DNA from: Gemmatimonadota bacterium
GTDB lineage: Bacteria > Gemmatimonadota > Gemmatimonadetes > Longimicrobiales > Gaopeijiaceae
Length of the DNA stretch: 24,747 nucleotides
NCBI GenBank assembly: GCA_039589315.1
Contig: JBDHHQ010000091.1
Span: 1 to 24,747 of the forward strand
Reading direction: 5' to 3'
Part shown: positions 963-22,165 of the stretch, piece by piece
Layout of the letters: every line of letters starts with the position of its first letter
Position numbering within the stretch: position 1 is the stretch's first letter
Program-made: the position numbers and the translations under genes
Notes under the pieces: generated by a model
What the model was told of the DNA's origin: nothing
Databases searched by the model: none
The model's input: only the letters and a program-made list of their open reading frames with translations

Positions 963-1000
963 TGAGGCGATCGACGCGCTGCCTCCGCTTGATGGGTGAA
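963..1000 (+). promoter_or_regulatory. Candidate ECF-type promoter, copy 1 (TGAGG-N16-TCCGCT-N6-GTGAA)
   Basis: TGAGG 963-967, TCCGCT 984-989, GTGAA 996-1000; same elements and spacing as the copy at 1601-1638; 36 nt before ATG 1037. Confidence 0.6.
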
Positions 1001-1036
1001 CCGAGGGACTTCACCCCCAACGGAAGGCAGAGACCC

Positions 1037-1237
1037 ATGTTCCGGCCCCTCTCACCCGAGCTCTTCGCGGACGGCCGTCCCCAAGCATGCGCCCGGAAGA
1101 GGCGCGACTTGTCGCACCTGCGGGTTGTGCAGACGGCAAGGCGGCAGGTCGCGTTGGAGCTGACCGCCATCGTGAGGGATCCCGAGCTGCGCGTCCGCCT
1201 TCCCATGGTCAGCCCGGTCTACACCGCAAGGGCCTGA
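1037..1237 (+). CDS. Small hypothetical protein, 66 aa (MFRPLSPELFADG...VYTARA)
   Basis: ATG at 1037 inside ORF 845..1237, purine-rich GGAAGGCAGAG upstream, preceded by the shared promoter-like motif; no recognisable domain. Confidence 0.45.
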   Translation: MFRPLSPELFADGRPQACARKRRDLSHLRVVQTARRQVALELTAIVRDPELRVRLPMVSPVYTARA

Positions 1238-1267
1238 GCCGCCTCGCCCGTCGTTCACGCGCAGCCG

Positions 1268-1520
1268 ATCCCCCCGGGCGTCGAGTCCGGATGGGTTTCT
1301 TCGGACGCCAACGGTTGCCTGCACCGACTCGGACCTCGGGTCCGGGTGGGCTTCTTGTGACGCCAACGGTTGCCCTGCGCCCACTCGGACCTCGAGTCCC
1401 GGTGGGCTCCCTCTGATCGCAACGAGTCGCTCGCTCCAACGCGGACCTCGAATCGTGGGCCCTCTCCCGACTCAGCGAGTCGCCAGTGCCCTGGCAGTCT
1501 CAGCGGCGTCCGGGTGGGGC
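1268..1520. repeat. Degenerate tandem array, period 55-56 bp, about 5 units, each with a GC-rich hairpin (REP-like)
   Basis: Units start at 1281, 1336, 1392 and 1448, with a further arm (GTCCGGGTGGGGC) at 1508. Shared blocks are CGGACCTCGRGTCC.GGTGGGC and GACGCCAACGGTTGCC. Example hairpin: GCCCACTCGGAC-CTCGA-GTCCCGGTGGGC at 1379-1407. Confidence 0.8.
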
Positions 1521-1600
1521 TCGTCTGGGCGCTCGTTCGCCCCTGTCGGGACGTCAACAGAGGAATCCTGCGGCCTGGTCCGGGAGGTCCCGACTGGCGA

Positions 1601-1638
1601 TGAGGTAGATCGATCGTCTTTTCCGCTCTCCAAGTGAA
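1601..1638 (+). promoter_or_regulatory. Candidate ECF-type promoter of hcp, copy 2 (TGAGG-N16-TCCGCT-N6-GTGAA)
   Basis: TGAGG 1601-1605, TCCGCT 1622-1627, GTGAA 1634-1638; 41 nt before the hcp ATG. Confidence 0.6.
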
Positions 1639-1679
1639 GGCGATGGCCAACCAAGACCAAACGACATAGGGAGACAACG

Positions 1680-2162
1680 ATGTTCGACGCGTTTCTGGAG
1701 CTCGAGGGAGTCGACGGCGAGTCCACCCGCAAGGGCTTCGAAGGGATGATCGAGCTGGACAGCTTCGATCTGGGAGCGCTGAACCCGAGCACGATCGGCT
1801 CCGGCGGTGGCGGCGGCGCGGGTAAGGTCACGCTCCGGCCGATCTCGATCACCAAGCGAACCGACGCGGCCAGCCCGGTGATGTTCCAGGCCTGCTGCAC
1901 CGGAAAGCACTTCCCCACGGCGAGGATCACGCTGCACAAGGCCGGCGGCGACGAGGCCGTGGACTACCTGATCTTCGAGTTCGAGAAGGTCTACGTGGAG
2001 TCCATCGACTGGGCCGGATCCTCGGGCGGCAACGACCAGGCCCTGGAACGGGCGACGCTGAAGTTCGGCAAGATCACCGCGACCTACACGCCGCAGTCCG
2101 AGACGGGCGCGAAGGGATCGCCCGTGGTGGCCAGCTGGGACGTCATGGCCGTTTCGACCTGA
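1680..2162 (+). CDS. hcp: Type VI secretion tube protein Hcp (TssD)
   Basis: 160 aa; 'DAFLELEGVDGES...IELDSF...GGGGAGKV...ITKRTDAASPVMFQACCTGKHF...ERATLKFGKI...SWDV' matches the Hcp family; RBS AGGGAG upstream. Confidence 0.97.
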   Translation: MFDAFLELEGVDGESTRKGFEGMIELDSFDLGALNPSTIGSGGGGGAGKVTLRPISITKRTDAASPVMFQACCTGKHFPTARITLHKAGGDEAVDYLIFEFEKVYVESIDWAGSSGGNDQALERATLKFGKITATYTPQSETGAKGSPVVASWDVMAVST

Positions 2163-2169
2163 CGGGTAC

Positions 2170-2216
2170 GGCCTCGGGCGTTCGAACTTGTGCGCCCGGA
2201 AACCGACGCTGAGGCC
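2170..2216. terminator. Weak hairpin between the convergent hcp and TIGR02270-like genes
   Basis: CGGGCG (2175-2180) pairs with CGCCCG (2193-2198), flanked by GGCCTC/GAGGCC; no U-tract. Confidence 0.25.
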
Positions 2217-2220
2217 CAAT

Positions 2221-3507
2221 CTAGGCCTGGGCTCCGGCGGACCGAACACGAGGATCGGTCGGCCCACCTCGCCAGGCGCCGCTGTACCGGCCTCGTAGGT
2301 ACGACTGGTTGCGGGACAGGAGGTCCAGCTTGTCGAAGCCGTCACTCCCCGGAGGGAGGCTGGCGTCTTGACCCTGAGCGATCCGCGAAAACCCCACACA
2401 CACATCGCGGTGCTGCTCCCAGAGGCGCCACGCCAACCCCGGATCAGGCAGAACCACTTCATCCTCGAAGTCGGCGTCAACGGGGTCCCCTGCCGCTGCG
2501 CCACCGGAATCACCCTCAGGGGAGGGTCCGGCCGGCTCTGCGGACTCCCGCCCTTCTCGAGGCGGCACCGCGGCCCGTTCGCCAAAACTCACATCCAGCC
2601 CCGTCATTCTTTCGAACGCCGCACCGGCGGCAGCCGCCGTCCGAGCATCCGGGTGTTCCATGCACTCGAGCACCGACTCCACCACCCGCGGATGTCCGTA
2701 GCTTGCAAGTACGTTGAGCCGCTCTGGCCCGAGCGCATCGTTTGCACACACTGCGTGGAATGTGTGGAGGTCCTCGTGTGAGCCCAGCACGGCCAGAAGC
2801 TCCAGGACCTCCAGCCCGGACGCTGGCCCCTGCGTCGCCAGAGTCCGGCACGTCGGAAGAACGCCCTGGTTGCCGAGCCAGGCCGCGGTCTCGAGGGCGG
2901 CCCGGCGAACGCCAGGATGATCCGACCGGACGCCATCGGCGAACGTGCCCGCGTCGACTTCGAGCGCCAGGCAAGCCACGACGTGCCACCCCGCGATCTG
3001 GCGACTTGGGTCGGGGTTGGCGATTAGAGCAGCGGCCCAGTCCGCCGCTGCCCGGTCGCCATGCCGAGCAAGAGCTTCCGCTGCGACCGCTCCCGCGGGC
3101 GTCTCTACTCCGGCCGCGGCCCGTAGCTGATCGGCGATCACCTCGATCGGGCCCAGGCAGAGCCCCCCACGAATCCCCTCGAGGACGTCCCCCTCCGCTG
3201 CCTCCAACGCGGCCACGACGGCCTGGTGGCCTCCTGGCGACCCGATCTCGAGGAGCGTCACCGTGGCCGCAAGGGCCGTTCCCTCGTCCTCAGCCAAGAC
3301 CGACACCATGAGCGGTTCTGCATTCTCGCCGGCGAGCACCAGCGCGTCCGTGTGCGCTGCGATCCGGCGCTCGATTCGGCCGAGTGTCGTCAGGGTATCC
3401 TCGGGAGAACGGAGCGCAGCCTGCCGCGCCGGCCACAGCCACGTGAGCTCTTCCACATGCTCTTCCAGGATGTCCGGCATCCATTGGCCCAGCTCGATCA
3501 GCATCAA
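2221..3507 (-). CDS. TIGR02270-family HEAT-repeat-like protein (accessory gene of DUF2169/DUF4150 clusters)
   Basis: N-terminal 'ILEEHVEELTWLW..RQAALRSP.....L..IERRIAAHTDAL.LAG' and C-terminal 'AAGAAFERMTGLD...LPDP...W' fit the family; RBS GGGAGGG upstream; start may be TTG 3507 or ATG 3504. Confidence 0.85.
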   Translation of the reverse strand: MMLIELGQWMPDILEEHVEELTWLWPARQAALRSPEDTLTTLGRIERRIAAHTDALVLAGENAEPLMVSVLAEDEGTALAATVTLLEIGSPGGHQAVVAALEAAEGDVLEGIRGGLCLGPIEVIADQLRAAAGVETPAGAVAAEALARHGDRAAADWAAALIANPDPSRQIAGWHVVACLALEVDAGTFADGVRSDHPGVRRAALETAAWLGNQGVLPTCRTLATQGPASGLEVLELLAVLGSHEDLHTFHAVCANDALGPERLNVLASYGHPRVVESVLECMEHPDARTAAAAGAAFERMTGLDVSFGERAAVPPREGRESAEPAGPSPEGDSGGAAAGDPVDADFEDEVVLPDPGLAWRLWEQHRDVCVGFSRIAQGQDASLPPGSDGFDKLDLLSRNQSYLRGRYSGAWRGGPTDPRVRSAGAQA

Positions 3508-3536
3508 CTGAGGCGTCCCTCCCGTGAACGATCGGC

Positions 3537-3983
3537 CTAGTTGATCTCGACCGAGCCACCCTTGATGCGCTGGCGGCGACGGGCCAGCGAAGCGATGTCG
3601 GTTGCCCGTGTGAGCACCTTGCCGTCATGGCGCAGTGTCAACCTGGCTTTGCCGCACCGGAGGGTGAGCTCTTTGTCGGCTTCGATGGTGACTCGCTCGG
3701 TCTCCGGAGCTCGATAGGGTCCAATCCGTCCGAGGACGCAACCTCTGCCGTCCGGGGCGTTTGGAAGCAGCACGAGCACCTGGTCCCCCGGCTCCAGGGA
3801 GAGTGCCGGCGCGTCGCTCGTCTGCAGGACGTCGCAGAGGATGCCGGCGGTCGCGTCGTCGGGGCGGACCCCCACGTCTCCGGACTCGAAGAGGTCCTCA
3901 ACGGTGCCCCACCTCACCCGGTCGGAGGATCGGGCGATCAACGAGATGTCCGGGACCGAAGGGGAGGCGTCGTACTCACTCAT
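3537..3983 (-). CDS. DUF6484-type protein (mini gp5/VgrG-like OB-fold + beta tail)
   Basis: C-terminus 'TIEADKELTLRCGKARLTLRHDGKVLTRA....S.A....RIKGGSVEIN' is characteristic; context next to a TIGR02270-like gene. Confidence 0.85.
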   Translation of the reverse strand: MSEYDASPSVPDISLIARSSDRVRWGTVEDLFESGDVGVRPDDATAGILCDVLQTSDAPALSLEPGDQVLVLLPNAPDGRGCVLGRIGPYRAPETERVTIEADKELTLRCGKARLTLRHDGKVLTRATDIASLARRRQRIKGGSVEIN

Positions 3984-4046
3984 TGGCTCTCTGATCCTGT
4001 TCTGTCGCGTGAGAGTTTGTGGGTCGGGACGGTGGTCGCGGCACGG

Positions 4047-4907
4047 TCATGATCCGGTATTCTGCATGCTACCGCCGAAGCGGAACGTCCCAGCGCTCAC
4101 CCGTAGATCCCCGAGGACCGAGCGTTGGACGTCCGGGCGTTCGATGAAGCTGCGGTACAGCACGTACGCGTCGTACCTGCCCAATGACATCAGGACGGGT
4201 TTTCTCATTCTGAGCTGGAGAATCTCGCCGGGCTCGAGCTCGATCTCAGAACGCTGATCGGCAGGCGGAGTGGCACCGTCCTGGTCGACGCGCGCGACCT
4301 CGTCGCGGCCGAATCGGAGGAGTGCGCCAGGCCCTCGCAGCCCCTCGGAGCTCAGTGCATTCACGCCTAGCTGCAGACCCACCTCGGCCGCCGAGCGGGC
4401 TCCGGCCGGATTCCTCAAGACCAGGGGAGCAACACCGATGTTCTCCAGCGTCAAGTCGACCGCCAGGTCCTGGCCCGGGGTGAAGACCGGCGCGATGGGC
4501 CCGGCCACGCCCCGGATCGCTCGATAGGGGTGCTCCAACAGCTCCTGGGCCAGGCCGTGGACCGCGTCCAGCACGGGAACGAGGGGGTCAGGCACCGCGT
4601 CGACGGGGAACGCCCTTCGCTCGGCGGGCGGCGACCCGACCTGGCCCTCTCCGACGAAGACGAAGGGCGTAGTCGGCAGCGACGGCTCGGGGTCGGGAAG
4701 ACTGGAAACGTCCGCCGCCGTGAGGATCGCTCGGAGCTCCTTCCCGCGTTCCTGGGGGACCTCGACCCGGTAGTGCCCCATCTCCTCGCGGCCTCCGAAG
4801 TTCACCGTCGTGAGGAGCATGCTGGGACCCGTGGGCACGACCGTCAGTGTGACGAATCCCGGTGTCACGTTCGTGGAGAAGACGATGTACCAGTCGTGGT
4901 TCGTCAT
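4047..4907 (-). CDS. Hypothetical protein, candidate immunity protein for the upstream metallopeptidase effector
   Basis: 286-aa ORF with GC-rich third codon positions starting 43 bp after the effector stop; the immunity role is positional inference only. Confidence 0.65.
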   Translation of the reverse strand: MTNHDWYIVFSTNVTPGFVTLTVVPTGPSMLLTTVNFGGREEMGHYRVEVPQERGKELRAILTAADVSSLPDPEPSLPTTPFVFVGEGQVGSPPAERRAFPVDAVPDPLVPVLDAVHGLAQELLEHPYRAIRGVAGPIAPVFTPGQDLAVDLTLENIGVAPLVLRNPAGARSAAEVGLQLGVNALSSEGLRGPGALLRFGRDEVARVDQDGATPPADQRSEIELEPGEILQLRMRKPVLMSLGRYDAYVLYRSFIERPDVQRSVLGDLRVSAGTFRFGGSMQNTGS

Positions 4908-4950
4908 TGTTCTGCAGTCAATCTTGGACTGACTGGCTCCATTAGATCGT

Positions 4951-6480
4951 CTAGGTCATGGGTAGGAGCTTGGTTTGGCCGATCACCGAGGACGCGTGGG
5001 AGTCGAACCAGTCCTTGAACTCCTTCATGTGCCGCTTCTTCACTTCGTCTCCTGAGTCCATGATGCTCAGCGCGTCTCCCCCGGAGATCACCGTGCTGGG
5101 GTCGGATTCACGAGACACGGGCACGGCACCGGTTTCCCACCGATCCGTCTTGGTATTGAAGCAGACGTACTCGTCATACAGCCCGATCAGGTGCCCGAAC
5201 TCATGGGGACGGACGTATGGGTATGTGTCGCCCAACTGCCGGTACCACGTGTGGGAATTCCACCTCTCGAGATGCCGATTCCCGTCATTGTCCACGACCC
5301 ATGGGGTGGCCTTGTTGTGGACCACAACGGGGGTTCCGTGGCCCTGTCCAAACGGAACGAACTCACACACAATGTTGATGGGGAACTTGCAGCCGCCGCA
5401 GTCCGTGCAGTCGCAGTCGTCGCCCCGCAAGCAGTCTACGCGATGAAGCATCCACTGTTCGCTCCATACCGCCTCGATCTCCCGTTTCCACGCCGCGAAC
5501 TCGCTGTCGGGGATGCCTTGCTGACCGAACACAACGGCCTGTCCGGGTTGTACTTGGGTCCGCAGCCTCGTCTCCACCTTCTTCGTGATGATCAGTTCAC
5601 CGTCCCGGATCTCCCGATCGTAGGTGACGTCCCAACCGAACATCCCGAAGGCCACGTCCCGGACGAACGTCGGGTCCCACCCGCCTCCTGGCAGCTGAGC
5701 CGGCAGCATGAGGATTGCCTGCCGCGTCTCCGAGGGGAATGGCTCGTTGGCCTCGACCGTCTTCACCAGCAGCTGGTTGGCGGAATCGCGGGGCCCACCC
5801 AATCCCCGCGCCCGTGCCCATAGCTTCACCTCGGGCACGTACAAACCCCGCCGCACGCACCAGTTCGGGTAGGCCGCCGATCCGCTCGAGAACTGCACGT
5901 CGAACTGGTCGACCTGATGAAAGAGCGGATCGAGGCGCGCGGGCGCGACGACGGTCGACTCGTTCTCCATGATCACGCCTTCGAGGGTCAGCGATACCTC
6001 GTCTCCACAGCAGGCCTCCGGCTGATCCCACTCGATCTTGGTGATCTTCTGCTCGTCCGGGTCCTGACTAGGAGCAACCACAGCAGGGGTCTGGATCGTG
6101 GACGCGGGCCCCGTGTTGGTCTTGGAGCCGCCGTTCTGCAGTGTGAGATCCAGCTGCCGGAACACGTTCTCACCGTCCACCTTCACATCGAAGGAGTACA
6201 TGGTGGGATGGGCTTTTCCCTTGATCCGGTTCGAGACGACCCCGAGCAGTGTTCCTGCCTCGTCGCCCGTGCTCATGGAGTAATTCGACGACTTCAGCAT
6301 GATGGGGTTGCCGTCCATCTTGACGGTGCTGGACCCATCCGCCGTGTGGGCCGACATGGCCACGTTGGGATAGGGAATCGGGACGGGTCCGCCCGGCGAG
6401 GGCGTCTTGCAGACGTCTGGAACCGCGATGGAGACACCGCCGCTGGTCTTGTGGACCACCGTCATGTTGTTCACGATCAC
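4951..6480 (-). CDS. DUF4150 (PAAR-like, PIPY motif) spike-tip protein with C-terminal zinc metallopeptidase effector domain
   Basis: 'VVHKTSGG...PDVCKTPSPGGPVPIPYPNVAMS...STGDEAGT..GVVS...YSFDVKVDGENV.R' is DUF4150; C-terminal HEFGHLIGLYDEY followed by 'SIMDSG' (Met-turn). Confidence 0.92.
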   Translation of the reverse strand: MIVNNMTVVHKTSGGVSIAVPDVCKTPSPGGPVPIPYPNVAMSAHTADGSSTVKMDGNPIMLKSSNYSMSTGDEAGTLLGVVSNRIKGKAHPTMYSFDVKVDGENVFRQLDLTLQNGGSKTNTGPASTIQTPAVVAPSQDPDEQKITKIEWDQPEACCGDEVSLTLEGVIMENESTVVAPARLDPLFHQVDQFDVQFSSGSAAYPNWCVRRGLYVPEVKLWARARGLGGPRDSANQLLVKTVEANEPFPSETRQAILMLPAQLPGGGWDPTFVRDVAFGMFGWDVTYDREIRDGELIITKKVETRLRTQVQPGQAVVFGQQGIPDSEFAAWKREIEAVWSEQWMLHRVDCLRGDDCDCTDCGGCKFPINIVCEFVPFGQGHGTPVVVHNKATPWVVDNDGNRHLERWNSHTWYRQLGDTYPYVRPHEFGHLIGLYDEYVCFNTKTDRWETGAVPVSRESDPSTVISGGDALSIMDSGDEVKKRHMKEFKDWFDSHASSVIGQTKLLPMT

Positions 6481-7570
6481 TTGGGCGGTGTGGCCGCACC
6501 AGGATTGCGGCCCGGTCGCCCTGATCCGACGCGGCGCAGATCAGCATCTCGCCCTCTCCAGCGTAGCCCCTCTCGAGAGCCCGGGTCGCCATACCGACGG
6601 CCAGGGGCAGGAACGCCGCCCCCACGTCCCCGACGCAGTCCATGGGATGCCAAAGCTCCGAGTCGTTCGGCAGCTCTGCGAGGCACCGGGTGTCGACGAG
6701 CCCCCATTCCCGGAAGCGCCAGCGCTCGCCATTCAAGTCGACGATCACACGGTCGAGGGCCGAAGCGCCTCCCGAGGCGGCGAGGACTCTCTGTACCACG
6801 CGAGCCATCGTGTCGGAGTGCTCCAGCCGCTTGGGATCCCGTTTCGACGGCTCCTGGCCCTCGAGGGCCCTGGGCCCTATCCGAATGCGAGGACGAAGGC
6901 CACGTCGGCGCGCATCGTCCGCCCGCTCCAGCACGAGGAAGGCGGCGGCTTCTCCCGGGATCAGACCCACCGGTGTCGCTGGCGTCTTCAGCCGCCCCGC
7001 GTCGTGCAGTGACCTCAGGAAGACCGGGTGCAGGAGCGAGTCCACGCCGCCCACGATCGCCACGTCGACCCGCGCCTCCTCCAGATCGCCCACCGCTTCG
7101 GCCAGGGCCAACGCGCCCCCGACCTGATCCAAGGCGAATAGATCGATCCGGTGCGGGCTGAACGCAGCGAAGATCTCCGTGCCAACCTCGTCCGCGAAGC
7201 GCTCCAGGCCACCCGTGGGCGTTCCCGGACGATCGGGCCGCGGCACGCCGAGGTATACGCCGGCCCGGTACCCTCCCATCTGCCGTTGTACGTGCTCGAA
7301 GTCGAAGAGTCCGGCGTCCACCACCGCTTCGTACAACGGCGCCGTGAGCAGTGTGCGGGCCTTCCCGACCCAGGACCCCTTCCCGAGATCCGGCTGCACC
7401 GCGCTCACGATCAAGGCCGTTCCGTCTTCGTCGAACGACGCCCCGAAGTGGGGCCACTCGGCGAAGCGGTTGACGCCCGCACGGACGGACGCGCAGCTCT
7501 GGATGGCGTGCTCGCCAACGGCCGTCTTCATGCCGACTCCGGTGATGACGATCTCCTTGGCCTCAGACAT
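6170..7570 (-). CDS. Beta-ketoacyl-synthase-like (PRK06147-type) T6SS accessory protein; native stop missing, so the ORF runs 311 bp out of frame into the DUF4150 gene
   Basis: 'ITGVGMKTAVG....SCASVRAG', 'AIVGGVDSL', 'GLIPGEAAAFLVLE', 'DLNGERWR..EW', 'HPMDCVGDVGAA', 'SDQGDRAAILV'; family-like sequence ends near 6495; no catalytic Cys at the expected site (DQVGGALAL). Confidence 0.88.
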   Translation of the reverse strand: MSEAKEIVITGVGMKTAVGEHAIQSCASVRAGVNRFAEWPHFGASFDEDGTALIVSAVQPDLGKGSWVGKARTLLTAPLYEAVVDAGLFDFEHVQRQMGGYRAGVYLGVPRPDRPGTPTGGLERFADEVGTEIFAAFSPHRIDLFALDQVGGALALAEAVGDLEEARVDVAIVGGVDSLLHPVFLRSLHDAGRLKTPATPVGLIPGEAAAFLVLERADDARRRGLRPRIRIGPRALEGQEPSKRDPKRLEHSDTMARVVQRVLAASGGASALDRVIVDLNGERWRFREWGLVDTRCLAELPNDSELWHPMDCVGDVGAAFLPLAVGMATRALERGYAGEGEMLICAASDQGDRAAILVRPHRPSDREQHDGGPQDQRRCLHRGSRRLQDALAGRTRPDSLSQRGHVGPHGGWVQHRQDGRQPHHAEVVELLHEHGRRGRNTARGRLEPDQGKSPSHHVLLRCEGGR

Positions 7571-8576
7571 CGTCCCGCTCCGTGCCTGCTACCCGGATCC
7601 ACTGGACGTCGTACACGCGATCCGCAACCGGGAAGCGGGCCCTGGCAACCCAGATCAGCCGTTCTCCGTCACCGTCCAGAATCACGGTGTCACGGCGGAC
7701 CTCCAGCTCGTTGCGGGCTTCAGACGTTCTGACTGCGACCTCGATGCCGGGCCTGGGCAGCAGAAACGCGAGCCGGCCGGATGGCGACAGGTTGTCCAAC
7801 TCGACGGACGTCCCGGGAGGGATCTCCCCCGACCAGAGCTGGTCCGGCGGTGCGGCCTGATGGAAACGTGAATCGAAGTCGTCCGGAAGCAGTGGCGCGC
7901 GGTCGTTTTGCCACGCGTCGTCGTAGGTACCGGCGTACTGGGCCCGCGACGCCCAGTTTGGTGATACGAACGAGAGGCCCCACGGCGCGGACCGGTCTCC
8001 GGGACCCGTGATCAGGTCGTCCGGACTCTCCACGTTGGGGAGCGGGGTGCCGTCGAGTGTCATGCGGGACTCCTCTCCGCGAAAACCCACTCCCACGGGA
8101 TTGGACGGCTCCCATTCGGGACCCTCCGAGCCCGTCTCGTCCCATCCCCCGAAGGCCCGGTCCCAGACGACGGGCATCCGTTGGAACGGCACAGGTGCGG
8201 TTGCCGAGAGGAAGCCGGCAGTCCTTCGCCAAAAGCGGTCACCGAAGACCCGCAGGCGTTTGTCCAGCGGTCCCACGCGCAACCGTGCGTCCACATACTC
8301 CCGGCCCCCGGAGGGGGCGTACGCGCTCCCCACGAAGATGACGTCGGTCAAAGGCTTTTCCGCAGCTACGTCTGTGCCGTGCCGGAGGCTGGATCGCCCC
8401 GGCTCTCCGTGGTACTCGTCGACTAGCCAAACCGGCTCCTGCTCTTCGTGGAGCGTCGGGGTTTGGCTCCGGACGTCGTAAGTCGCCTTGACCAGAACCA
8501 GGAGCTCCTCCTGCCCGAAGCGGTCAGGGACGACGACGGCGCGCGCACTAAACGGACTCAGGTTCCTCAGGTCCAT
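7563..8576 (-). CDS. DUF2169-family T6SS adaptor/chaperone
   Basis: 'LLVLVKATY...DEYHGEPGRSSLR..D....KPLTDV..VGSAYAP...VFGDRFW...PF..MPV.W.RAFGG...NPVGVGF...R..YAGTYDDAW...RAPLLPDDFD.RF.Q.AP.DQ'; RBS GAGGA. Confidence 0.95.
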   Translation of the reverse strand: MDLRNLSPFSARAVVVPDRFGQEELLVLVKATYDVRSQTPTLHEEQEPVWLVDEYHGEPGRSSLRHGTDVAAEKPLTDVIFVGSAYAPSGGREYVDARLRVGPLDKRLRVFGDRFWRRTAGFLSATAPVPFQRMPVVWDRAFGGWDETGSEGPEWEPSNPVGVGFRGEESRMTLDGTPLPNVESPDDLITGPGDRSAPWGLSFVSPNWASRAQYAGTYDDAWQNDRAPLLPDDFDSRFHQAAPPDQLWSGEIPPGTSVELDNLSPSGRLAFLLPRPGIEVAVRTSEARNELEVRRDTVILDGDGERLIWVARARFPVADRVYDVQWIRVAGTERDDV

Positions 8577-8583
8577 GGAGTCC

Positions 8584-10648
8584 TCAGTTCTGCTTGATCT
8601 TCGAGCCCTTCAGCGTGATGGTCGACTTGGCCTTCACGTTGATCTTGCCGGATCCGTTGACGACGATGTCCTTCCCCTTGAGCGTGATCGTCCCGTCCTT
8701 CTTCAGGATGATGGAGGCCTTCCCAGGCCTTCCCGGTCTGTATCGTGATCTCGTCGCCCGCAGTGAGTGTCAACTCCTTGCCCGCATCCAGCATCATGTG
8801 CTCGCCCGCCAGCGCCGATCGGTTTCCGCCCACCGAGATCTTCTCGTCCTTGCCGACGGTCAGGCTGCGCTCACCGCCGACCTCGATCTTCACGTCGTCA
8901 CCGACTTGCACGGACCGGCGGCTCGTGACGGAGATGGACTCGTGCCTCCCGATCATCGTCTTGTGGCTTCCCCCGATGGTCCGTACCTCGCCCAAGGCGA
9001 CCACCGTGCTGCGGGCGCCGCCCACGTTGTTGCTCTCGCTGCCGCCCACCGCGGCGACACGGTTACCGCCGACGGTCCGACTCTGGTTGCCGCCCACGGT
9101 GATACCTTGGTTGTTGTCCACTCCCACGCTCTGGTCATGCTCGACGGTCGTGGCCATGTCGTACTGAGCGTGGATCTTGACCTCCTCCTGACCCTTCGTG
9201 TCGGTCATTGAGATCTCGTTGGCACCGCCGCCGCCGGGTGAGCTCCGAGTCTTCATGCCCATCGTTATGCCAGCTCCAGGCAGGTCGAACGGAGGCACGT
9301 CTTCGTCGTTGTAGACGCTACCGATCACCAGGGGTCGGTCGGGGTCACCCTCGAGGAACTCCACGACCACCTCGTTGCCAATGCGCGGAACCGAAAGGGC
9401 CCCGTAGCCCTTGCCACCCCATGGTGTGGCGACCCGCACCCAGCAGGAGCTGTTCTCGTCGGCAGCTCCGCGCCTGTCCCAGTGGAACTGGACCTTGATG
9501 CGACCGTGCCCGTCGGTCCACACCTCTTCACCGGCCTTCCCCACTACCACGGCCGTCTGGGAGCCATGTATCCTGGGCTTCGGTGTCCGCGTTGGCGGGC
9601 GGTAGGGGGTATCGTCCGGAGACGCGACGAAGCGGTTTCTGTAGTCGAATGCCTCCTGATCGCCACTCCGGTAGCTGTCGGCTCGGGCCTCGTGAGCCAC
9701 TTCCTGCAGGAGGTAGCCCCGGTTCGCCTCCCGTTGATAGTGGTGGTCGAGCTCGAACGTACACCCCACCTGGAAGGCCCGGCACGTACCCTCACCCCGG
9801 ACGACGCTGCGCAACGCCTCCTCACGCTCCAGCGCGATACGCGCGTACCGCTCCCCGTCCTGCCTGCTCGAGTAGCCACCGGGGTAATCGTAGATCTCCT
9901 CGGAGCCACTGCCCTCCAAGGAGCAGGAGAGGCTCATCTTGGGCTGGAGGTAATCGTAGTCCATGAGTGTCAGGCTTCCGGCATGGACGGTGTGGTCGCG
10001 TCGTAGCGCCAGGACCACGTCCTCGTCCGGAACTGCCTCTGGTGCCAATCGCACCTCGCCCCCACCCGGGCAGGCCTCGGCTGTGTCCACACGATCCGCG
10101 ATTACGAGCTCGTGTCCCGCGTCCGAGTGACGGAAGAAGTAGAAGAGCCCCTCCTCCTCGAGGAGCCGTGACACGAAGTCGAGATGCGACTCCCTGTACT
10201 GCACGCAATACTCTCGCTGCGGGTAGCTGCGAAGCGTGCTGAACCGGAACGCGGACCACCCGAGCTCCTTGAAGACGCTCTCGACGACCTCGAGAACGCT
10301 CATGTGCTGGAAGACGCGGCAGTCCCTCGAGAGCGAGAGAAACCACAGCCAGGGGACGATCTCGGCGGTGTAAGCGGTCAACTGGGCAGCGCGATCGAGT
10401 TGCACGAACCGCCGCACCAGCCCGTGGATCAGCCGTGTGTCGCCGTTGGGCAGGAGCATCGAAAGGACCATCGGTGTGCGCAGGACCTCGTTCGGCTCGA
10501 TGTCGTCGCGCTCCGAGTACATCTCGATGTTGAACAGGTAGGGCTCCGAGATCCGCTCGACGCCCGTGAAGCCGGCCACCAGCAGGACATCTTCGCCGAG
10601 GTCTGTTTGCAGCCGCAGCTGCCGGTTCGCCTGTGCGTAAGCGCCCAT
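8584..10648 (-). pseudogene. vgrG: VgrG (TssI) spike protein 1, frameshifted 43 codons before its natural end by a 10-bp duplication (as read, the ORF is 8567..10648)
   Basis: 'YCVQYRESHLDFVSRLLEEEG', 'GSQTAVVVG..GEEVWTD.HGRIKVQFHWDR', 'SSCWVRV...WGG.GYG...PRIGNEVVVEFLEGDPDRPLVIGSVYN', 8-aa gp5-like repeats; RBS GGAGG. Removing one AGGCCTTCCC copy restores a 684-aa protein ending ...KGSKIKQN-stop at 8584. Confidence 0.93.
8715..8734. repeat. Perfect 10-bp tandem duplication AGGCCTTCCC x2 inside vgrG1
   Basis: 8715-8724 and 8725-8734 are identical and coincide exactly with the loss of VgrG-like sequence in the reading frame. Confidence 0.95.
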
Positions 10649-10690
10649 GGGCGGTGTGCCTCCGTTGGAGCGTTGCTCGGTAGCGATCCC

Positions 10691-10719
10691 AAAAAGGCTC
10701 GACGAAGGGATTCGTCGAG
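10691..10719 (-). terminator. Intrinsic terminator-like hairpin in the vgrG1 5' leader
   Basis: Minus strand reads CTCGACGAA-TCCC-TTCGTCGAG-CC-TTTTT: a perfect 9-bp stem, 4-nt loop and U5 tract, ending 42 nt before the vgrG1 ATG. Confidence 0.55.
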
Positions 10720-11106
10720 ACGGACGAGCGGCACCCCCAGGTAGAACGGCAACGCGGGCGATGCTCCGCCAATCTCTCGATCATCGCTGGTAACGACAAC
10801 CGCCTTCGGTTGGAACGGACCCGTTGGCCTTGAAACGGTCCTCAGAGGGGCGCTACGGTTCCCAGCGGCACAACCAACCGGGGCGGCCAGCCTGATCCAC
10901 ACGACCGACGCACCTGAGGTGCCGCAGACTCCGGTAGCTGCCTTGGCCGCTGTCAGGCCCCCACCCTATACTGAGCTTCGCTGGCAACGCTCTCCTTGCG
11001 CCGATCCGCCAGCCCCCGAGGCCGAGCCGCCAGGGACGCGCCGGCCACGTCGACGGGCAAGGCATGTCCAAGGTCAGTGACCGAATGAACCGAACACTGA
11101 AGTCGC

Positions 11107-11964
11107 ATGATCGACGTCCGATTCGATGACCGGGGCCCCTTCGTTGCCGCTCTCCAGGTTCTTCTGAACAGGTGGCTCCGGGCAACGCGCCTCACCATCG
11201 ACGGGATCTGGGGCTCGGATACCCGGACGGTGATGGGCGAGGTAAACCGCCGGATCGGTGCCTCCGGCGGTGGCGAGCGGGCCGACGGAGCAACGTGGGC
11301 TGCCCTGATCGACCGGACCCGCGTCAGCATCATCAGCGCCAACGACATCTACGACCCCAGACACGACGACTTCACGCCGCCGGAGCTGCGGGGACCGGGG
11401 TGGATCGCCACCAGCGGCATGAGCGGGGGAGTGGGCCAGGTGGTCCGCGACATCCAGCGCAGGGCAAGGGTCCTGGGCCCCATCGCGCTTCTTCGCTTTT
11501 ACGGGCACGGGGCTCCGGGCCTGATGGGGGTCACCGGTGGCACCGGGACCATGCGGGGCAGTGGCGGCGAGACGATCTACCGCGACGCGTCGGGCCGTGA
11601 GCTGGAGCGGGACCAGCGCCCGCATGACCGATGGGGTCAGGCGATCCGGGGAGACCACGTCCGGGACCAGACGACCATCAGCAACGAGACGTTCCGTCTA
11701 ATCGAGCCCCAGCTGGCCAGGCTGCGTCCACACTTCGCGCCTTATGGCTCCGTGCAGCTGCACGGTTGTCGTGTCGGGCTGGGGAGCTCCGGCCGTCGGT
11801 TGCTCCGCTCACTGGCCGACACGCTCGGTGTCCCGGCCGCCGCCGGACGGGGATCGCAGTCGTTCGGTCAAACGACGAGCCTACGCTTCGAGGGGTCGGT
11901 CCGGACGGAGTTTCCGGAGGGCGGAACACTCAGGTCCTGGACGAGCGGTCTGGAGGCTCGGTGA
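11107..11964 (+). CDS. Peptidoglycan-binding domain + DUF4347-like (caspase/clan CD-type His-Cys) domain protein
   Basis: 'DRGPFVAALQVLLN......IDGIWGSDT' resembles PG_binding_1; 'LRFYGHGAPG...VQLHGCRVG....GRRLL..LA..LGVPAAAG' resembles DUF4347. Confidence 0.75.
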   Translation: MIDVRFDDRGPFVAALQVLLNRWLRATRLTIDGIWGSDTRTVMGEVNRRIGASGGGERADGATWAALIDRTRVSIISANDIYDPRHDDFTPPELRGPGWIATSGMSGGVGQVVRDIQRRARVLGPIALLRFYGHGAPGLMGVTGGTGTMRGSGGETIYRDASGRELERDQRPHDRWGQAIRGDHVRDQTTISNETFRLIEPQLARLRPHFAPYGSVQLHGCRVGLGSSGRRLLRSLADTLGVPAAAGRGSQSFGQTTSLRFEGSVRTEFPEGGTLRSWTSGLEAR

Positions 11965-11998
11965 AGCGCCAAGCCCTTCTCACCCCTGGACGCACCTG

Positions 11999-12568
11999 AT
12001 GAGCTCATCGCAGCCTGTCACCCGACTGCTCCTCGATTGGCGAGGCGGCAACGACGAGGCCCTGGACCTGCTGATGCCCATCGTTTACGACGAGCTGCGG
12101 TCCCTGGCCGCAAGCTACCTCAGCCGCGAGCGGGCCGGACACACACTCCAGCCCACGGCTCTGGTCCACGAGGCCTACGTCCGGATGATGGACATGGACG
12201 TGGCGTGGCAGGATCGGGCTCACTTCTTCGCTCTCTCGGCCCGAATGATGCGCCGGATCCTCGTCGATCACGCCCGCTCTCGCTCGAGTCAAAAGCGGGG
12301 AGGCGGAGTGCGACCGGTCACCCTGGAAGAGGGCCTGGCCGCCGCGGCCGATCAGCCGGAGGAGCTGATCGCGCTCGACGACGCCCTCACCCGCCTCGCG
12401 GAGCTCGACGAACGCAAGGCGAGGGTGGTGGAGCTCCACTACTTCGGTGGTCTGAGCTACGATGAGACCGCTGAAGTCGTAGGGATATCGGCGGCCACCG
12501 TCGACCGGGATCTGCGCTTCGCCAAGAGCTGGCTGCTCAACGAGCTGAGCGAAGGGTCCGGGGGCTGA
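11999..12568 (+). CDS. ECF sigma-70 factor, TIGR02999/ECF43 (Ser/Thr-kinase-associated) type, 189 aa
   Basis: 'VTRLL..W..G...ALD.LMP.VYDELR.LA..YL..ER.GHTLQPTALVHEAY...AHFFA..AR.MRRILVDHAR.R...KRGG...VVEL.YFGGL...ETAE...TV.RD..FAK.WL'; start reassigned from 11744 to ATG 11999. Confidence 0.95.
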   Translation: MSSSQPVTRLLLDWRGGNDEALDLLMPIVYDELRSLAASYLSRERAGHTLQPTALVHEAYVRMMDMDVAWQDRAHFFALSARMMRRILVDHARSRSSQKRGGGVRPVTLEEGLAAAADQPEELIALDDALTRLAELDERKARVVELHYFGGLSYDETAEVVGISAATVDRDLRFAKSWLLNELSEGSGG

Positions 12569-12585
12569 GCTCCGCTCCGGCACGC

Positions 12586-13653
12586 ATGGGAGACTCGGCC
12601 GACCGTTGGCAACGACTACAGAGACTCTTCGAGGCGGCTTCGCAAGAGACCGGCGACGCGCGGAGCGCGCTACTGGGCCGTGAGTGCGCCGATGACCCTG
12701 CCCTCCGGGCCGAGGTCGAGTCGCTGCTCAGGGCCTCGGAACGGGCGGACGATCACCTGAGCCGTGTGGTGGGGCAGGCGGCGGCCGAAGTGGAGGCAGC
12801 CAGCCGTCTCGGCGCGGGTCAGGTGCTGGGTGCCTACCGCGTCGAGCGGGAGCTGGGTCGTGGGGGGATGGGTGCCGTCTACCTGGCCGCACCCGTGGAC
12901 GGCGGCGAGCCCGTGGCCATCAAGGTCCTGTGGGCTGGCCGCTGGAGCCCCGAACTGGCTCGTCACTTCCGTAGGGAGCGGCGGATCCTCGCCAGCCTGG
13001 ACCATCCCTACGTGACCCGAGTCCTGGGCTCCGGGAGCACGGACGACGGTATCCCGTACGAAGTGATGGAATACGTCGACGGCGAGCCGCTCGATACCTT
13101 TTGCGACCGGCGCATGTTGGACCTGACCGACCGCGTCGACCTCTTCCGCCGCGTATGCGACGCCGTCGAGCACGCGCACCTCCGGGGCATCGTGCACCGC
13201 GACCTCAAGCCGGCCAACGTGCTCGTGAAGGCAGACGGCACCCCGAAGCTGCTCGACTTTGGCATCGCCAAGCCTCTGCATGACGCCGCCCTGACCGGTA
13301 CCGTCTTTACGACCCGGACCGGCGTTCGGCTGATGACACCGACCTACGCGAGCCCCGAGCAGGTGAGAGGCGAGCCACTCACGGCGGCGTCCGACGTGTA
13401 TTCGCTGGGCGTGGTCTTGTATGAGCTGGTGACTGGCAGACTGCCATATGACCTGGTGAGAGGGCATCCCGGCGAAGTGCTTCTGGCGATCGTGGACCAA
13501 CAGCCGAAGGCGCCCAGCCAATGGATGGCCAGTGGCACCAACGTGCTCGACCCGCCGGTGCTACGCGCCCTCGAGAAAGACCCGGACCGCCGGTTCCGCT
13601 CGGTGAGTGCGCTGTCGAGCGCGGTACAGGCGGCAGCCACCGAGCTCTCGTAG
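12586..13653 (+). CDS. Hanks-type Ser/Thr protein kinase, 355 aa, no transmembrane or sensor domain
   Basis: GRGGMGAVY, VAIK, HRDLKPANV, DFG, TPTYASPEQ, DVYSLG and a terminal DPDRR; N-terminal 'RW.RL..LF..A....R...L...C..D..LR.EVESLL' is typical of ECF-linked kinases. Confidence 0.95.
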   Translation: MGDSADRWQRLQRLFEAASQETGDARSALLGRECADDPALRAEVESLLRASERADDHLSRVVGQAAAEVEAASRLGAGQVLGAYRVERELGRGGMGAVYLAAPVDGGEPVAIKVLWAGRWSPELARHFRRERRILASLDHPYVTRVLGSGSTDDGIPYEVMEYVDGEPLDTFCDRRMLDLTDRVDLFRRVCDAVEHAHLRGIVHRDLKPANVLVKADGTPKLLDFGIAKPLHDAALTGTVFTTRTGVRLMTPTYASPEQVRGEPLTAASDVYSLGVVLYELVTGRLPYDLVRGHPGEVLLAIVDQQPKAPSQWMASGTNVLDPPVLRALEKDPDRRFRSVSALSSAVQAAATELS

Positions 13654-13828
13654 ACGATTCGCGACAATAGATTCAACGCCGCGCGTCTGAAACGCCAGCG
13701 CAACACATGCACCGACACATACGCAACTCTTGCCCCCACGCCATCTGCGAACGAAGCTGTTCGGAGAGATCCGATACCCAACGCCCAGACGATACCAGAG
13801 TGCCGCAGAACCGGCGGACTGCTGCTGC

Positions 13829-13947
13829 GAAGGGAAAGCCGGCGTGAGGGGGCTGTCTCTTAGGGAGTGGTGTGGGTGCTGCGGAACCCAGCCGCGGGCA
13901 TGTTGCCCGATGGCTGAGTGTTGGCCCTGCTGCTGCGCGTGGTTCGC
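13829..13947 (+). pseudogene. Degenerate copy of the small membrane-protein ORF at 14694..14933
   Basis: 13829-13947 aligns with 14711-14830 (GAAGGG.A.GCC.....GAGGGGGCTGTCTCT...AGCCGCGGGC...GTGTTGGCC...CGCGTGGTTCGC); this copy has indels and TGA where the paralog has TGG (Trp). Confidence 0.65.
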
Positions 13948-14301
13948 CGCGGAGGCGCGCGAGTCCGAGCTTTCGCGATGCTTGCCGATCCACACCGAGC
14001 CAGTCGAGATCCTCTACACCGGGTGGGTCCAGGACAACACGGCCGGCCTGATCCCCAGCCCCTCCGACTGGGATCTGGGGCTGGATCCGTGTAGCGCCCA
14101 AGGTCGTCATCGCAACCTGGCACGACGATGAGGACCTCTCCTGACTCGCGATGCCTGGGCGCGATACCCAGTGTCATCGCACGCAGCCCTTGGGGCGCTG
14201 CCCCCCTACAGGCGCTCCGGGTCCGACAGGAACCGGGGCACAGCGACATCAGACACCCGCTATGGTTCCAACAGCCGTTCGCCAGAAGAGACAGAACCCC
14301 C

Positions 14302-14490
14302 CTATCCCTGGGTCGTGGGGCCAAAGACCCAGAGCACCAGGATGACCAATAGGGCGAGTATGTCCAGGGTGATCCGCAGCCTCCGTGATAGCCTCAGGAC
14401 GTAGGGCTGCTGAAAGCCGTTGGGGGCCCCGCAATGCTCGTCGTTGGAGGGCGGCCGATCGACCGACCGTCGGATCTGAGTCGTGACCAT
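14302..14490 (-). CDS. Small protein (62 aa) with a C-terminal transmembrane helix
   Basis: Hydrophobic ITLDILALLVILVLWVFG preceded by basic RLSRRLR; GAGG RBS upstream of the ATG; preceded by copy 3 of the promoter-like motif. Confidence 0.45.
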   Translation of the reverse strand: MVTTQIRRSVDRPPSNDEHCGAPNGFQQPYVLRLSRRLRITLDILALLVILVLWVFGPTTQG

Positions 14491-14541
14491 GATGACGCCT
14501 CATTCGTCGCTGATGGGAACTGGCGCACCGCGAGAAGTCCG

Positions 14542-14579
14542 TCTGCCTTCCAAGCGTGATCCACGGCAATCGACCCTCA
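14542..14579 (-). promoter_or_regulatory. Candidate ECF-type promoter, copy 3 (TGAGG-N16-CACGCT-N6-GCAGA)
   Basis: Same TGAGG-N18-CGCT-N6-G spacing as copies 1 and 2; 51 nt upstream of ATG 14490. Confidence 0.45.
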
Positions 14580-15581: not shown

Positions 15582-16232
15582 TCATTGCTTCGCGCCGGAG
15601 CTGCGGCCGGCCTCCGATTCGAGCCGACGCTCGAGTACTGCAGCGACCGTGCCCCAGACGCTCCGGCCGCCGCTCCGCATGTCGAAGTCGCGGTACCGGG
15701 TGAGCGCCGCCGCCACGTCAGAGCTCTCATACGCGTACGCGATCTTCCAGGGGACTGTCTCGGCCAGTTCATGCGTGATCCCGGGACCGGAGAGCAGACG
15801 CTCCCAGCGGTCGATGGCTGCTGGTGGGTCGTCCTCCACCTGCACCGAGGCGATCGCGTCCTGAACCTCAAGGTTCGGGTCCGAGTCGAAAGCACGAAGA
15901 AGCTGATCCCGCTCCGCCGGGTAGCGCCGAAGGAGATACCTTATGGCGGCGCCGCGCCACCCCATGTCTGGTCTTTCCAGCATGAAGTGGGCAAGCGTGT
16001 GCAGCCGGGCGTACGCCGGTGCGTGCTCGAGGAGAGCCCACAGGCGATCATACGTCTGGCCATCGAAGATTTCACGGCGCGCTTCAGCGACCTGAGCGTC
16101 GTATAGCGCAGTCGCCTCAGCCGACGATATCAGATGCTCCCCGCGACGAACTGCACGGATTAGACGGCTCAGCTGATCACACCTTGTCTCCCTGTCAGGC
16201 TCCGCGAGCGCATCTAGGACCGATGTCGTCAT
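15582..16232 (-). CDS. Putative immunity protein for the Rhs toxin (alpha-helical, HEAT-like), 216 aa
   Basis: ATGA overlap with the rhs stop (translational coupling); helical-repeat-like sequence ('FDSDPNLEVQDAIA'). Confidence 0.75.
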   Translation of the reverse strand: MTTSVLDALAEPDRETRCDQLSRLIRAVRRGEHLISSAEATALYDAQVAEARREIFDGQTYDRLWALLEHAPAYARLHTLAHFMLERPDMGWRGAAIRYLLRRYPAERDQLLRAFDSDPNLEVQDAIASVQVEDDPPAAIDRWERLLSGPGITHELAETVPWKIAYAYESSDVAAALTRYRDFDMRSGGRSVWGTVAAVLERRLESEAGRSSGAKQ

Positions 16233-19200: not shown

Positions 19201-19768
19201 GCCTGTCCCGTCCTCCGGGAATCCAGAGACGAACGAGGAGCCCTCGTTCATCTGATTCGACCCGGATGGTGCGACCACTGGAATCGAGAATGCTACGAAG
19301 GCGAGCCCCTTCATCGTACACGAACTCGATGGTAGCCTCACCCTTGCGAAGTCGGGTCAGCGGAACCGGTCTGGCGAAGTCTCGCACCTCGAACTGGCCG
19401 ACGGGCTGTCTCCCCTGCGCGACCTCGTAGAGCGTCGGGGCGATCCTGCGCAGCCTCAGTCCTGCGCGTGCGACTTGCTCACCGTCTGCCAGCAGCGGGG
19501 GGAAGCCGACCGCGCGTTCGAGCGGTCCAACGTGCCGAACTCCATCGGCGTCGAAGATCAGCGTTCGATCGAAAGCGTGCGAGTGTCCCCAGCCCAGGGA
19601 GAAACGTCGATGGCAGAGGGAGCTGTCGTAGTGTCGCTCCCAATCCAGAACCAGAGGCCCGGTGAGCCTGAAATCACGAGTCACCTCGGTGTTCGCGCCA
19701 GTGATGACGCTCACCGGATCGCCGACGAACTCCCAGTCCTTACCGCACGACACGCTGAGGGCCCTCAC
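16229..19768 (-). CDS. rhs: Rhs/YD-repeat toxin (DUF6531 + Rhs core + 209-aa C-terminal toxin domain)
   Basis: 'GDPVSVITG....DF.L.GPL.L.WER.Y.S....LGWG.SH' (DUF6531), many YD repeats, core end 'LRFPGHYFDTETQLHYNRFRYYSPELGRYLQPDPAGL.GG.NLYAY...P...VDLRGL'. Confidence 0.96.
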   Translation of the reverse strand: MRALSVSCGKDWEFVGDPVSVITGANTEVTRDFRLTGPLVLDWERHYDSSLCHRRFSLGWGHSHAFDRTLIFDADGVRHVGPLERAVGFPPLLADGEQVARAGLRLRRIAPTLYEVAQGRQPVGQFEVRDFARPVPLTRLRKGEATIEFVYDEGARLRSILDSSGRTIRVESDERGLLVRLWIPGGRDRPDRILLTYEYDDAGNLVRGTDPYGSVFSFDYDALNRVDRRSDRLGYSFRFFYDKHGRCVRTAGEDGLHDTRLRFLTAEGATVVTRADEGEWTYLYETGNLTKIIDPYGGVLTFIPDGTGRTDLEVDANGNATTLVYDSAGGLAGRISPIERFTPVPEPPHRQDRWEHRIPRSALEWEYGDLSLRFGRRAREPSLEHLPPQFRGVPRPPAAGGVWLGATRKVYDDFGNLIREETPAGRARRYVYDPNGNLHRFTDFDGSERIFRFRGWNQMSSCTDALQRSVRYQYTSTERISAITDRGGSTSEYAYDLRDRLVEVRRHGVVKERYRYDDADQLVEKLNGLGESVVSYEIGSGNRKAARHLRSGENHFFEYDEHGRFRSVSTDDLAVGFAYDEWGNRVEDKRNGKGVEHRFDNVGRLVGTTYLGRFDVRYTYGPGGRVGITDPMGGDHSIRPLGGGVFLRRFSNGTSELSQYDHEGRGLLKASSRNLSRDLWKRTFAYSGEGDLLEARDSERGATKYGYDFAHRLVSVSSSDGSEATYAYDDGDNLIRAPGLEEVVLLQGNRLEKVNGDRFAYDDRNNMSTRAGAGGETRYWYDSKDMLIRCDIRGEAWEATYDPLGRRATKTFRGACTEFYWDADRLAAEVAADGTVRIYVYAAPLAMVPLFFVEFAALDAEPESGRIHFLFTDQIGAPRLVEDESGSVVWSARMSSYGATEVDAESSVSLNLRFPGHYFDTETQLHYNRFRYYSPELGRYLQPDPAGLMGGFNLYAYTASPLANVDLRGLDPCPACEAGTRRAEEEGLEHEDLPRPSELEPVVRGDTPPFSDLPSFENMSASEIRRILEDAGFSQTQHERTVELPVFDDDGNPVGTRTATDPRGGSEIWMRRDENGNYEAVRMDQHGHERPDFIPPGEDFHGEPAHVHREHLPNDQERRDGATTRDGDPVLPPGSSEGDAADSYNEQFTPGVYDTYGDNGDQTANTDFPANHTTIEGPG

Positions 19769-20841: not shown

Positions 20842-20844
20842 TCC

Positions 20845-22104: not shown

Positions 22105-22165
22105 GAATGACGCTTCTCCCTATCCGTGAACATGCGCGGCGTTCTATTCGGCAGTCGGGTTCCGG

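Follow-up and report, generated by a model that had tools for sequence, protein, structure and literature searches.

What reads the promoter-like motif that precedes hcp in a type VI secretion system (T6SS) locus of an uncultured Gemmatimonadota bacterium? The locus is a stretch of 24,747 nt (GenBank assembly GCA_039589315.1, contig JBDHHQ010000091.1; hereafter the window). In it, the motif TGAGG-N18-CGCT stands upstream of hcp and of two small open reading frames (ORFs), and an extracytoplasmic function (ECF) sigma factor is encoded at 11999. A first-pass annotation of the window had proposed that this sigma factor reads the motif and that hcp and the two small ORFs form its local regulon. 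By comparing the window with the rest of its source genome (G000; 6.67 Mb, 67.5% GC), with a comparison genome of the same genus (G001) and with loci from other genera, we conclude that the motif is probably the promoter of one subclade of ECF43 sigma factors, read mainly by the sigma factor at 11999 (we put the probability at roughly 0.78). The argument turns on four elements:

963..1000, plus strand: putative promoter copy 1; -35 TGAGGC at 963-968, -10 CGCT at 986-989, predicted start G998
1601..1638, plus strand: putative promoter copy 2 (hcp); -35 TGAGGT, -10 CGCT at 1624-1627, predicted start G1636
14542..14579, minus strand: putative promoter copy 3; -35 TGAGGG, -10 CGCT at 14556-14553, predicted start A14544
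11999..12568, plus strand: ECF43-type sigma factor, the proposed reader; PF07638 and TIGR02999 above cut-off

Association of the motif with an ECF43 subclade

All three copies lie where the first-pass annotation had placed them (963-1000, 1601-1638 and, on the minus strand, 14579-14542). Copies 1 and 2 are identical at 18 of 38 positions, the 16 that it had named and two more in the spacer, and their flanks are indeed unrelated, with identities of just 7/40 and 4/36. The ATGs at 1037, 1680 and 14490 follow the respective copies by 36, 41 and 51 nt, and no copy precedes vgrG1 or the ECF operon, as had been reported: near vgrG1 no matrix score exceeds 7.8, while the three copies score 13.7-28.8 (the matrix is described below). 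Between positions 800 and 2400 there is no TTGACA-N16-18-TATAAT housekeeping site, and an Rfam search returned no match. Taken by themselves, the three copies are only marginally above chance (3 pattern matches against 0.37 expected, with 3 reached in 1 of 100 shuffles, for a pattern that was defined after the fact), and the evidence from the window alone is weak.

The sigma factor at 11999 scores 197.6 bits against PF07638 and 224.7 bits against TIGR02999, both above cut-off. Its sigma2.2 region reads QPTA, with T53 in the place of DAED, and its sigma4 helix reads ATVDRDLR; T53 is nearly invariant in 49 sequences, and a Ser/Thr kinase gene, another mark of the ECF43 group, stands at position +1 (12586-13653). 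A structure model (pLDDT, the predicted local distance difference test score, of 72) gave weak matches to ECF sigma factors, all of them above E=0.001, and the structure search returned no ECF43 structure. Because the source genome has 11 strong, ECF43-type matches to PF07638, 10 of them full-length, proximity to the gene at 11999 proves little by itself. A tree together with the helix signature gave us a subclade marker, the sigma4 helix ATV[D/H/Q]RDL, and the local sigma factor is the sole member of this RDL-helix subclade among the 10 full-length paralogs.

To ask whether the motif accompanies the subclade elsewhere, we assembled a test set of up to 20 kb around the best 40 of 57 non-genus matches to the local sigma factor (39 regions plus one locus from genome G143; 621 kb) and a control set from 20 of the 46 non-genus matches to a paralog on contig C53, chosen for their longer contigs (315 kb). 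In the test set, TGAGG-N18-CGC[TA] matched 40 times, with 17 matches intergenic and 13 promoter-positioned, while spacings of 14-17 and 20-22 gave 8-17 matches, of which 0-3 were intergenic and 0-2 promoter-positioned; N19 gave a minor signal (13 matches, 6 intergenic, 4 promoter-positioned). The control set had 8 matches at N18, none of them intergenic or promoter-positioned. Three loci were reassigned by tree, which left 37 subclade loci and 23 other ECF43 loci. An intergenic TGAGG-N18-CGCT was present at 13/37 of the former and 0/23 of the latter (Fisher p=0.0009, a significance overstated by kinship, although the 13 positive loci cover 9 genera and 2 families), and other spacings had an intergenic copy at 0-3 of the 37. 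The proposed link between the motif and the sigma factor at 11999 is thus supported by association, through enrichment at subclade loci elsewhere and through the standing of the local sigma factor as sole subclade member; the window alone had supplied no support for it.

At the relatives' loci, the genes downstream of the motif mostly encode secreted lipoproteins, the sigma factor or the kinase, and for 12 of the 13 loci with the motif the genome gave no Hcp match (in a 400-genome set, assumed from identical tallies to be the same draw). The motif lies upstream of the sigma gene itself in a minority of relatives, for example G058, G315 and G003. At seven loci (L314, L330, L335, L339, L341, L343 and L344) it lies within the sigma gene itself, 131-149 nt ahead of the point where the kinase gene begins; these copies are kept with AT-rich codons and are likely an internal kinase promoter. 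Most ECF43 upstream regions have no shared motif of any kind, and TGAGGG/CGCT emerges from the neighbouring genes; words sought de novo in the upstream regions of ECF43 and csgG-like genes were just sigma70-like or kin-shared, and the approach was set aside.

The matrix was built from 17 intergenic sites of other genomes. Since these had been picked by the same 9-base core, the non-core positions alone provide a fair test, and by these positions the window copies rank 2nd (hcp), 7th (963) and 9th (14579) among the 92 core matches in the source genome (p=7e-4), with copies upstream of clpV and on contig C167 ranking 3rd and 5th. In the genome-wide ranking, the order is C33:44549 (a secreted protein), C39:33120 (a TGATG site between two other ECF43 paralogs), hcp in third place, C53:10744, clpV, one coding site and C167; the copies at 963 and 14579 rank 25th and 35th. 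Five of the 36 sites scoring >13.5 fall in T6SS contigs, which make up 0.83% of the genome, and when the matrix halves were shifted the sites scoring >18 fell from 9 to 1-5. The training sites carry a TG step at positions 36-37, and transcription is predicted to start near 998, 1636 and 14544 (the second G of GTGAA for copies 1 and 2). RNA contigs, assembled from small shares of runs and of a kind that cannot show starts, extend upstream of the motif. A matrix from 8 T6SS-associated sites was rejected as circular, leaving C167 outside the top 60, and was replaced by the one used here.

Copy 1 is kept in G001 with two substitutions, both in the spacer, and the sequence farther upstream diverges. 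At the hcp copy, G001 retains both boxes and the whole 5' leader, with 8 of 18 spacer bases changed and divergence upstream, and the C167 copy is likewise retained. As to copy 3, the motif occurs in G001 at C180:151, next to a vgrG cassette and ahead of an unrelated small ORF. Outside the genus the picture is different. In 45 regions upstream of hcp (4 of this genus; a subset of 62 Hcp-positive genomes plus named records), the motif was found at 2 of the 41 non-genus regions, G046 (-78) and G143 (-109, CGCA), both of another family, and no copy at any other spacing from 16 to 20 was found in the 45. Of the 60 csgG-like regions from outside the genus (upstream DNA was lacking for 3), one gave an exact match, which is doubtful, as it lies at a distance of 325 nt and overlaps a divergent start codon. 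Scanning metagenomes for hcp yielded 3 loci, all short and distant. On these counts, an order-wide T6SS box is rejected, and T6SS control by the motif looks lineage-specific. The motif is better described as a general promoter of the ECF43 subclade.

The -35 box covaries with the sigma4 helix of the subclade. With CGCT held fixed, the D/H-RDL loci (34 sigma genes) have TGAGGG 15 times and TGAATG once, and the Q-RDL loci have TGATCG at 5/5. These five loci belong to one branch in three genera and probably reflect one evolutionary event. Sites near other paralogs of the source genome read TGGCGG (C173, C22) and TGATGG (C39, C53), with the same CGCT. The helix residue that varies is D169, whose counterpart in SigL and SigW is the K of TVKS/TVKT, and the equivalent position presumably contacts -35 bases in sigmaE.

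The sigma-kinase operon and its putative regulon

The operon that contains the sigma gene, the candidate targets and the neighbouring T6SS genes are the following:

10943..10972, plus strand: sigma70-like promoter candidate TTGGCC-N18-TATACT, a consensus match that would drive the 11107-ECF-kinase operon
11107..11964, plus strand: 285-aa gene, first of the ECF operon; DUF4347 (PF14252) below cut-off
12586..13653, plus strand: Hanks-type Ser/Thr kinase, 355 aa; PF00069
1037..1237, plus strand: 66-aa ORF, probable target; good ribosome-binding site, no Pfam match
1680..2162, plus strand: hcp, T6SS tube protein; PF05638; second genome copy of two in total
2221..10648, minus strand: vgrG1, DUF2169, ketoacyl-synthase-like and PAAR-like effector cassette, without a motif copy
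14302..14490, minus strand: 62-aa ORF, possible target, hydrophobic towards its C terminus; no Pfam match
15582..24624, minus strand: TPR, vgrG2, TPR, PAAR, Rhs and putative immunity genes, the distal part of the run after clpV

The hexamers of the candidate operon promoter are the same in G001, at N17 spacing. A sigma70-like promoter for the operon fits control of the sigma factor after translation and would explain why no autoregulatory copy of the motif is present. The catalytic motifs of the kinase (GRGG, HRDLKPAN, DFG and YASPE) are invariant in 5 sequences, and it has an N-terminal extension of ~80 aa. It lacks a transmembrane (TM) helix or TPR sensor, with a hydropathy maximum of 1.19 compared to 1.65-2.52 in 24 relatives; the kinases beside subclade relatives are 559-986 aa long with a hydrophobic segment in 24/24 cases, compared to 355 aa here. 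The short form is found in 3 homologs (75-82% identity), all ending at the same column, and no decayed TM/TPR remnant was found downstream of the gene. The conserved short end, the invariant catalytic motifs and the missing remnant led us to reject a fresh pseudogene. Because a soluble fragment of PknS, the kinase of a Xanthomonas citri system discussed below, was phosphorylated without a cue and did not complement, the module could be silent, constitutively active or under cytoplasmic control; of these readings we tentatively prefer the third. Elsewhere in the genome, at C42:20000-67000, at least 8 long Ser/Thr kinase genes are clustered near an ECF43 gene.

From the motif, its spacing and conservation, its subclade association and the uniqueness of the local sigma factor, all computed here, we infer direct recognition, start sites, individual targets and a kinase trigger as follows. 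The promoter would consist of a -35 box TGAGG(G), a 17-nt spacer with a T-rich 3' end, a -10 box CGCT and a start ~9 nt on at the TG step, with the sigma factor at 11999 as its main reader in the source genome. A housekeeping-type promoter would drive the sigma-kinase operon. The soluble kinase would phosphorylate T53 in sigma2.2, a step taken from the EcfP/EcfK family, whereupon the sigma factor would bind core polymerase. The holoenzyme would then transcribe the second hcp, a csgG-like/FHA/PP2C operon on the opposite edge of the T6SS cluster, the two small ORFs and the C33 secreted-protein gene, and perhaps also clpV and the genes that follow it. Such a module would act as a booster layer over a T6SS whose tssB-tssC-hcp operon (C105) has a TTGACA-type site and no motif.

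As for the regulon, the predicted set is wider than the window and extends to C167, C175 and C33. Two additional sites appear to belong to the T6SS cluster, one before the csgG-like/FHA-like/PP2C operon on C167 and, less securely, one before clpV on C175. The G001 ortholog of the C167 operon converges on a ppkA-type kinase of the same cluster (the FHA label was read from the sequence by eye; Pfam gave no match for that protein). Shared terminal sequence shows the window to be the terminal part of the core T6SS cluster: an exact 114-nt overlap joins its right end to contig C175 (tssF-tssG-clpV), and a similar overlap joins C175 to C105 (tssB-tssC-hcp and others). The motif also lies upstream of a kinase-less ECF43 gene at C53:10744 (minus strand) and at C208:4263 (minus strand) in G001, where it extends across the start of an adenylate-cyclase-like gene that runs divergently; these copies may reflect a cascade of sigma factors or coincidence.

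The 66-aa ORF looks real, since it has three homologs (86-91% identity), each 66 aa long, and its codon changes relative to G001 are 9 synonymous and 6 non-synonymous. The 62-aa ORF is the least secure target; a homolog search returned just an identical sequence and no independent homolog. The protein encoded at 11107 is rare, occurring in 5/401 genomes of the order, with a 68% ortholog in G143, which has an hcp motif too; by eye, its start reads as peptidoglycan-binding-like. In G001 the ortholog of the 11107 gene directly follows hcp, and the vgrG1/DUF2169/PAAR cassette is missing between the two, having been either inserted in the source genome or lost there from G001. Repeats occur at three places in the window. 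Three degenerate direct repeats of 55-56 nt (1263-1429) separate the 66-aa ORF from the hcp promoter, and the matching intergenic region of G001 is shorter. An element of ~120 nt, at 13829-13947 and about 14710-14830 (74% identity), flanks the 14490 ORF plus its motif; of the two copies, one begins a short hydrophobic frame and one contains an in-frame stop, and no further copy was found in the source genome. Finally, a 21-nt tandem repeat at 648-845 encodes an acidic Pro/Ala/Glu/Gly tail of a CARDB-domain protein.

Competing explanations

Several observations weigh against the sigma factor at 11999 as the main reader of a subclade promoter. No intergenic copy is present in the DNA covered at 24/37 subclade loci, and plasmid-borne ECF43 loci outside the order (6/8 records) have no clear promoter-positioned copy. 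The source genome as a whole shows no enrichment of the N18 spacing, with 93 matches to TGAGG-N18-CGCT and 49-101 for spacings 12-25, and G001 has no excess over a reversed control (53 against 56). Copies lying 15-150 nt upstream of a called gene number 12 at N18 and 3-8 at other spacings by a custom dicodon gene caller. No autoregulatory copy stands before the local ECF operon in the source genome. The motif is present in G001, where no ortholog of the local sigma factor was found (best match 55%) in an assembly whose contig ends inside the gene just upstream. G046, which is 99% complete and has an hcp copy of the motif, encodes just a basal relative of the sigma factor, with helix ATAERDAR. 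The copy at C208:4263 in G001 is exact and precedes a non-subclade ECF43 gene (TGATG at the source-genome counterpart), so cross-reading between paralogs is possible. The clpV copy falls within the final codons of tssG, and its G001 counterpart has CGAGG. A printed ECF43 promoter prediction gives GTC at -35 and CAG at -10, and the TGAGG(G)/CGCT boxes do not agree with it; it was drawn from Proteobacteria ECF upstream regions with autoregulation assumed (PMC7826278). In X. citri, a truncated PknS autophosphorylated and did not complement (PMC13147305).

Some of these observations fit an ECF43 promoter whose chief reader is a different paralog, or a group of them, through a shared CGCT -10 and weak -35 discrimination. 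Ten full-length paralogs are available, the C53-type paralog has the exact copy in G001 and the TGATG copy at home, G001 and G046 yielded no ortholog of the local sigma factor, and in G254 a locus outside the subclade carries sites of the forms TGAGC-N18 and TGAGG-N19. We nevertheless consider this unlikely, as intergenic TGAGG-N18-CGCT is absent from all 23 non-subclade loci, other paralogs have their own -35 variants nearby, and the G001 assembly breaks exactly where the operon is expected. Nor does the motif lie upstream of any of 28 other C53-like genes, for which reason autoregulation of the C53 paralog via the motif was rejected. A slightly smaller chance attaches to the view that the promoters are real yet the module has been silent or always on since its kinase lost the sensor. 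The shortness of the kinase relative to all 24 relatives, and the behavior of PknS(1-364), phosphorylated without a cue and failing to complement (PMC13147305), are what such a module would lead one to expect; the common end point in 3 homologs with intact catalytic motifs, the clean downstream sequence and the conservation of the promoter boxes in G001 are not.

That the motif is instead bound by a transcription factor, or serves some unrelated sigma factor and is near these genes by accident, is improbable even in a genome with 29 other sigma2-bearing genes: the motif is non-palindromic and strand-specific with fixed ECF-like geometry, it tracks the ECF43 subclade and changes with its helix, and none of the 39 sigma genes has an exact copy in the 500 nt before it. 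Chance matches are to be expected in a genome of 67.5% GC with 93 core matches and no spacing peak, and they may account for individual copies such as those at 14579 and before clpV. As an account of the whole class of sites, chance is largely refuted by the enrichment at one particular spacing in independent genomes, and the footprint in G001, the non-core matrix ranks, the concentration in T6SS regions and the covariation with the helix make it very improbable indeed.

Beyond the promoter of a single subclade, a wider picture can be sketched, which we offer tentatively and think somewhat more apt to fail than to hold. The ECF43 sigma factors of the order would use TG(A/G)NNG-N17-CGCT with a -35 set by the helix, and in this genus one module would have lost its sensor and been wired to the T6SS, the FHA/PP2C operon included, with a soluble kinase that may receive an intracellular input, for example from the T6SS kinase PpkA, closing a feedback loop between firing and transcription. 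If this were true, about ten paralogs per cell would run insulated regulons, and target prediction across the family would become possible.

Comparison with known ECF systems

ECF43 is a model group for sigma factor activation by direct phosphorylation, widespread and abundant in uncultured phyla. A literature search, which was without the primary EcfK/EcfP papers and logos, found neither a TGAGG/CGCT consensus nor a validated ECF43 target promoter, and no study of T6SS regulation in this phylum. What appears to be new is a probable promoter consensus for an ECF43 subclade, paralog-specific -35 variants and recruitment to the T6SS in this genus. The consensus, together with natural covariation of helix and -35, makes regulon prediction and specificity testable with reporters, and it suggests that a kinase-sigma switch was recruited to a T6SS far from Xanthomonas, with a kinase lacking an outside sensor.

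Canonical ECF promoters, such as TGAAAC-N16-CGTA for SigW and GGAACTT-N16-GTCAAA for sigmaE, share with the motif ~23 nt from -35 start to -10 start, a TGA-type -35 and a CG-type -10. The motif differs from them in having GG, not AA/AC, in the -35 box and CGCT, not CGT(A/C). These differences match an unusual recognition helix, since TVDRDL replaces the TVKSRL/TVKTRI of SigL/SigW. EcfK reportedly acts partly through a downstream regulator, although our literature search returned no such report. With the prediction of Casas-Pastor et al. 2021, the motif shares the sigma group and a bipartite promoter (PMC7826278).

The local sigma factor resembles EcfP of the EcfP/PknT system of Vibrio parahaemolyticus, in which Thr phosphorylation replaces the DAED charge, in having QPTA where EcfP has STTA; it differs in that EcfP controls polymyxin resistance (PMC8999054, PMC8103513). 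The sigma2.2 Thr is described as the phosphorylated position in both EcfK and EcfP (PMC13147305, PMC8999054). Closest in setting is EcfK/PknS of X. citri, an ECF43 sigma factor and Hanks kinase that control a T6SS; no EcfK promoter consensus was found in what is accessible of these sources (PMC13147305, PMC6653060). In both systems, a sigma factor with the sigma2.2 Thr is encoded in a T6SS region directly ahead of a Hanks kinase that has an N-terminal extension. The system described here is from another phylum, and its kinase lacks a TM helix or TPR sensor. Because the subclade is usually found in this order with lipoprotein genes and no T6SS, the link to the T6SS was probably acquired separately in the two lineages.

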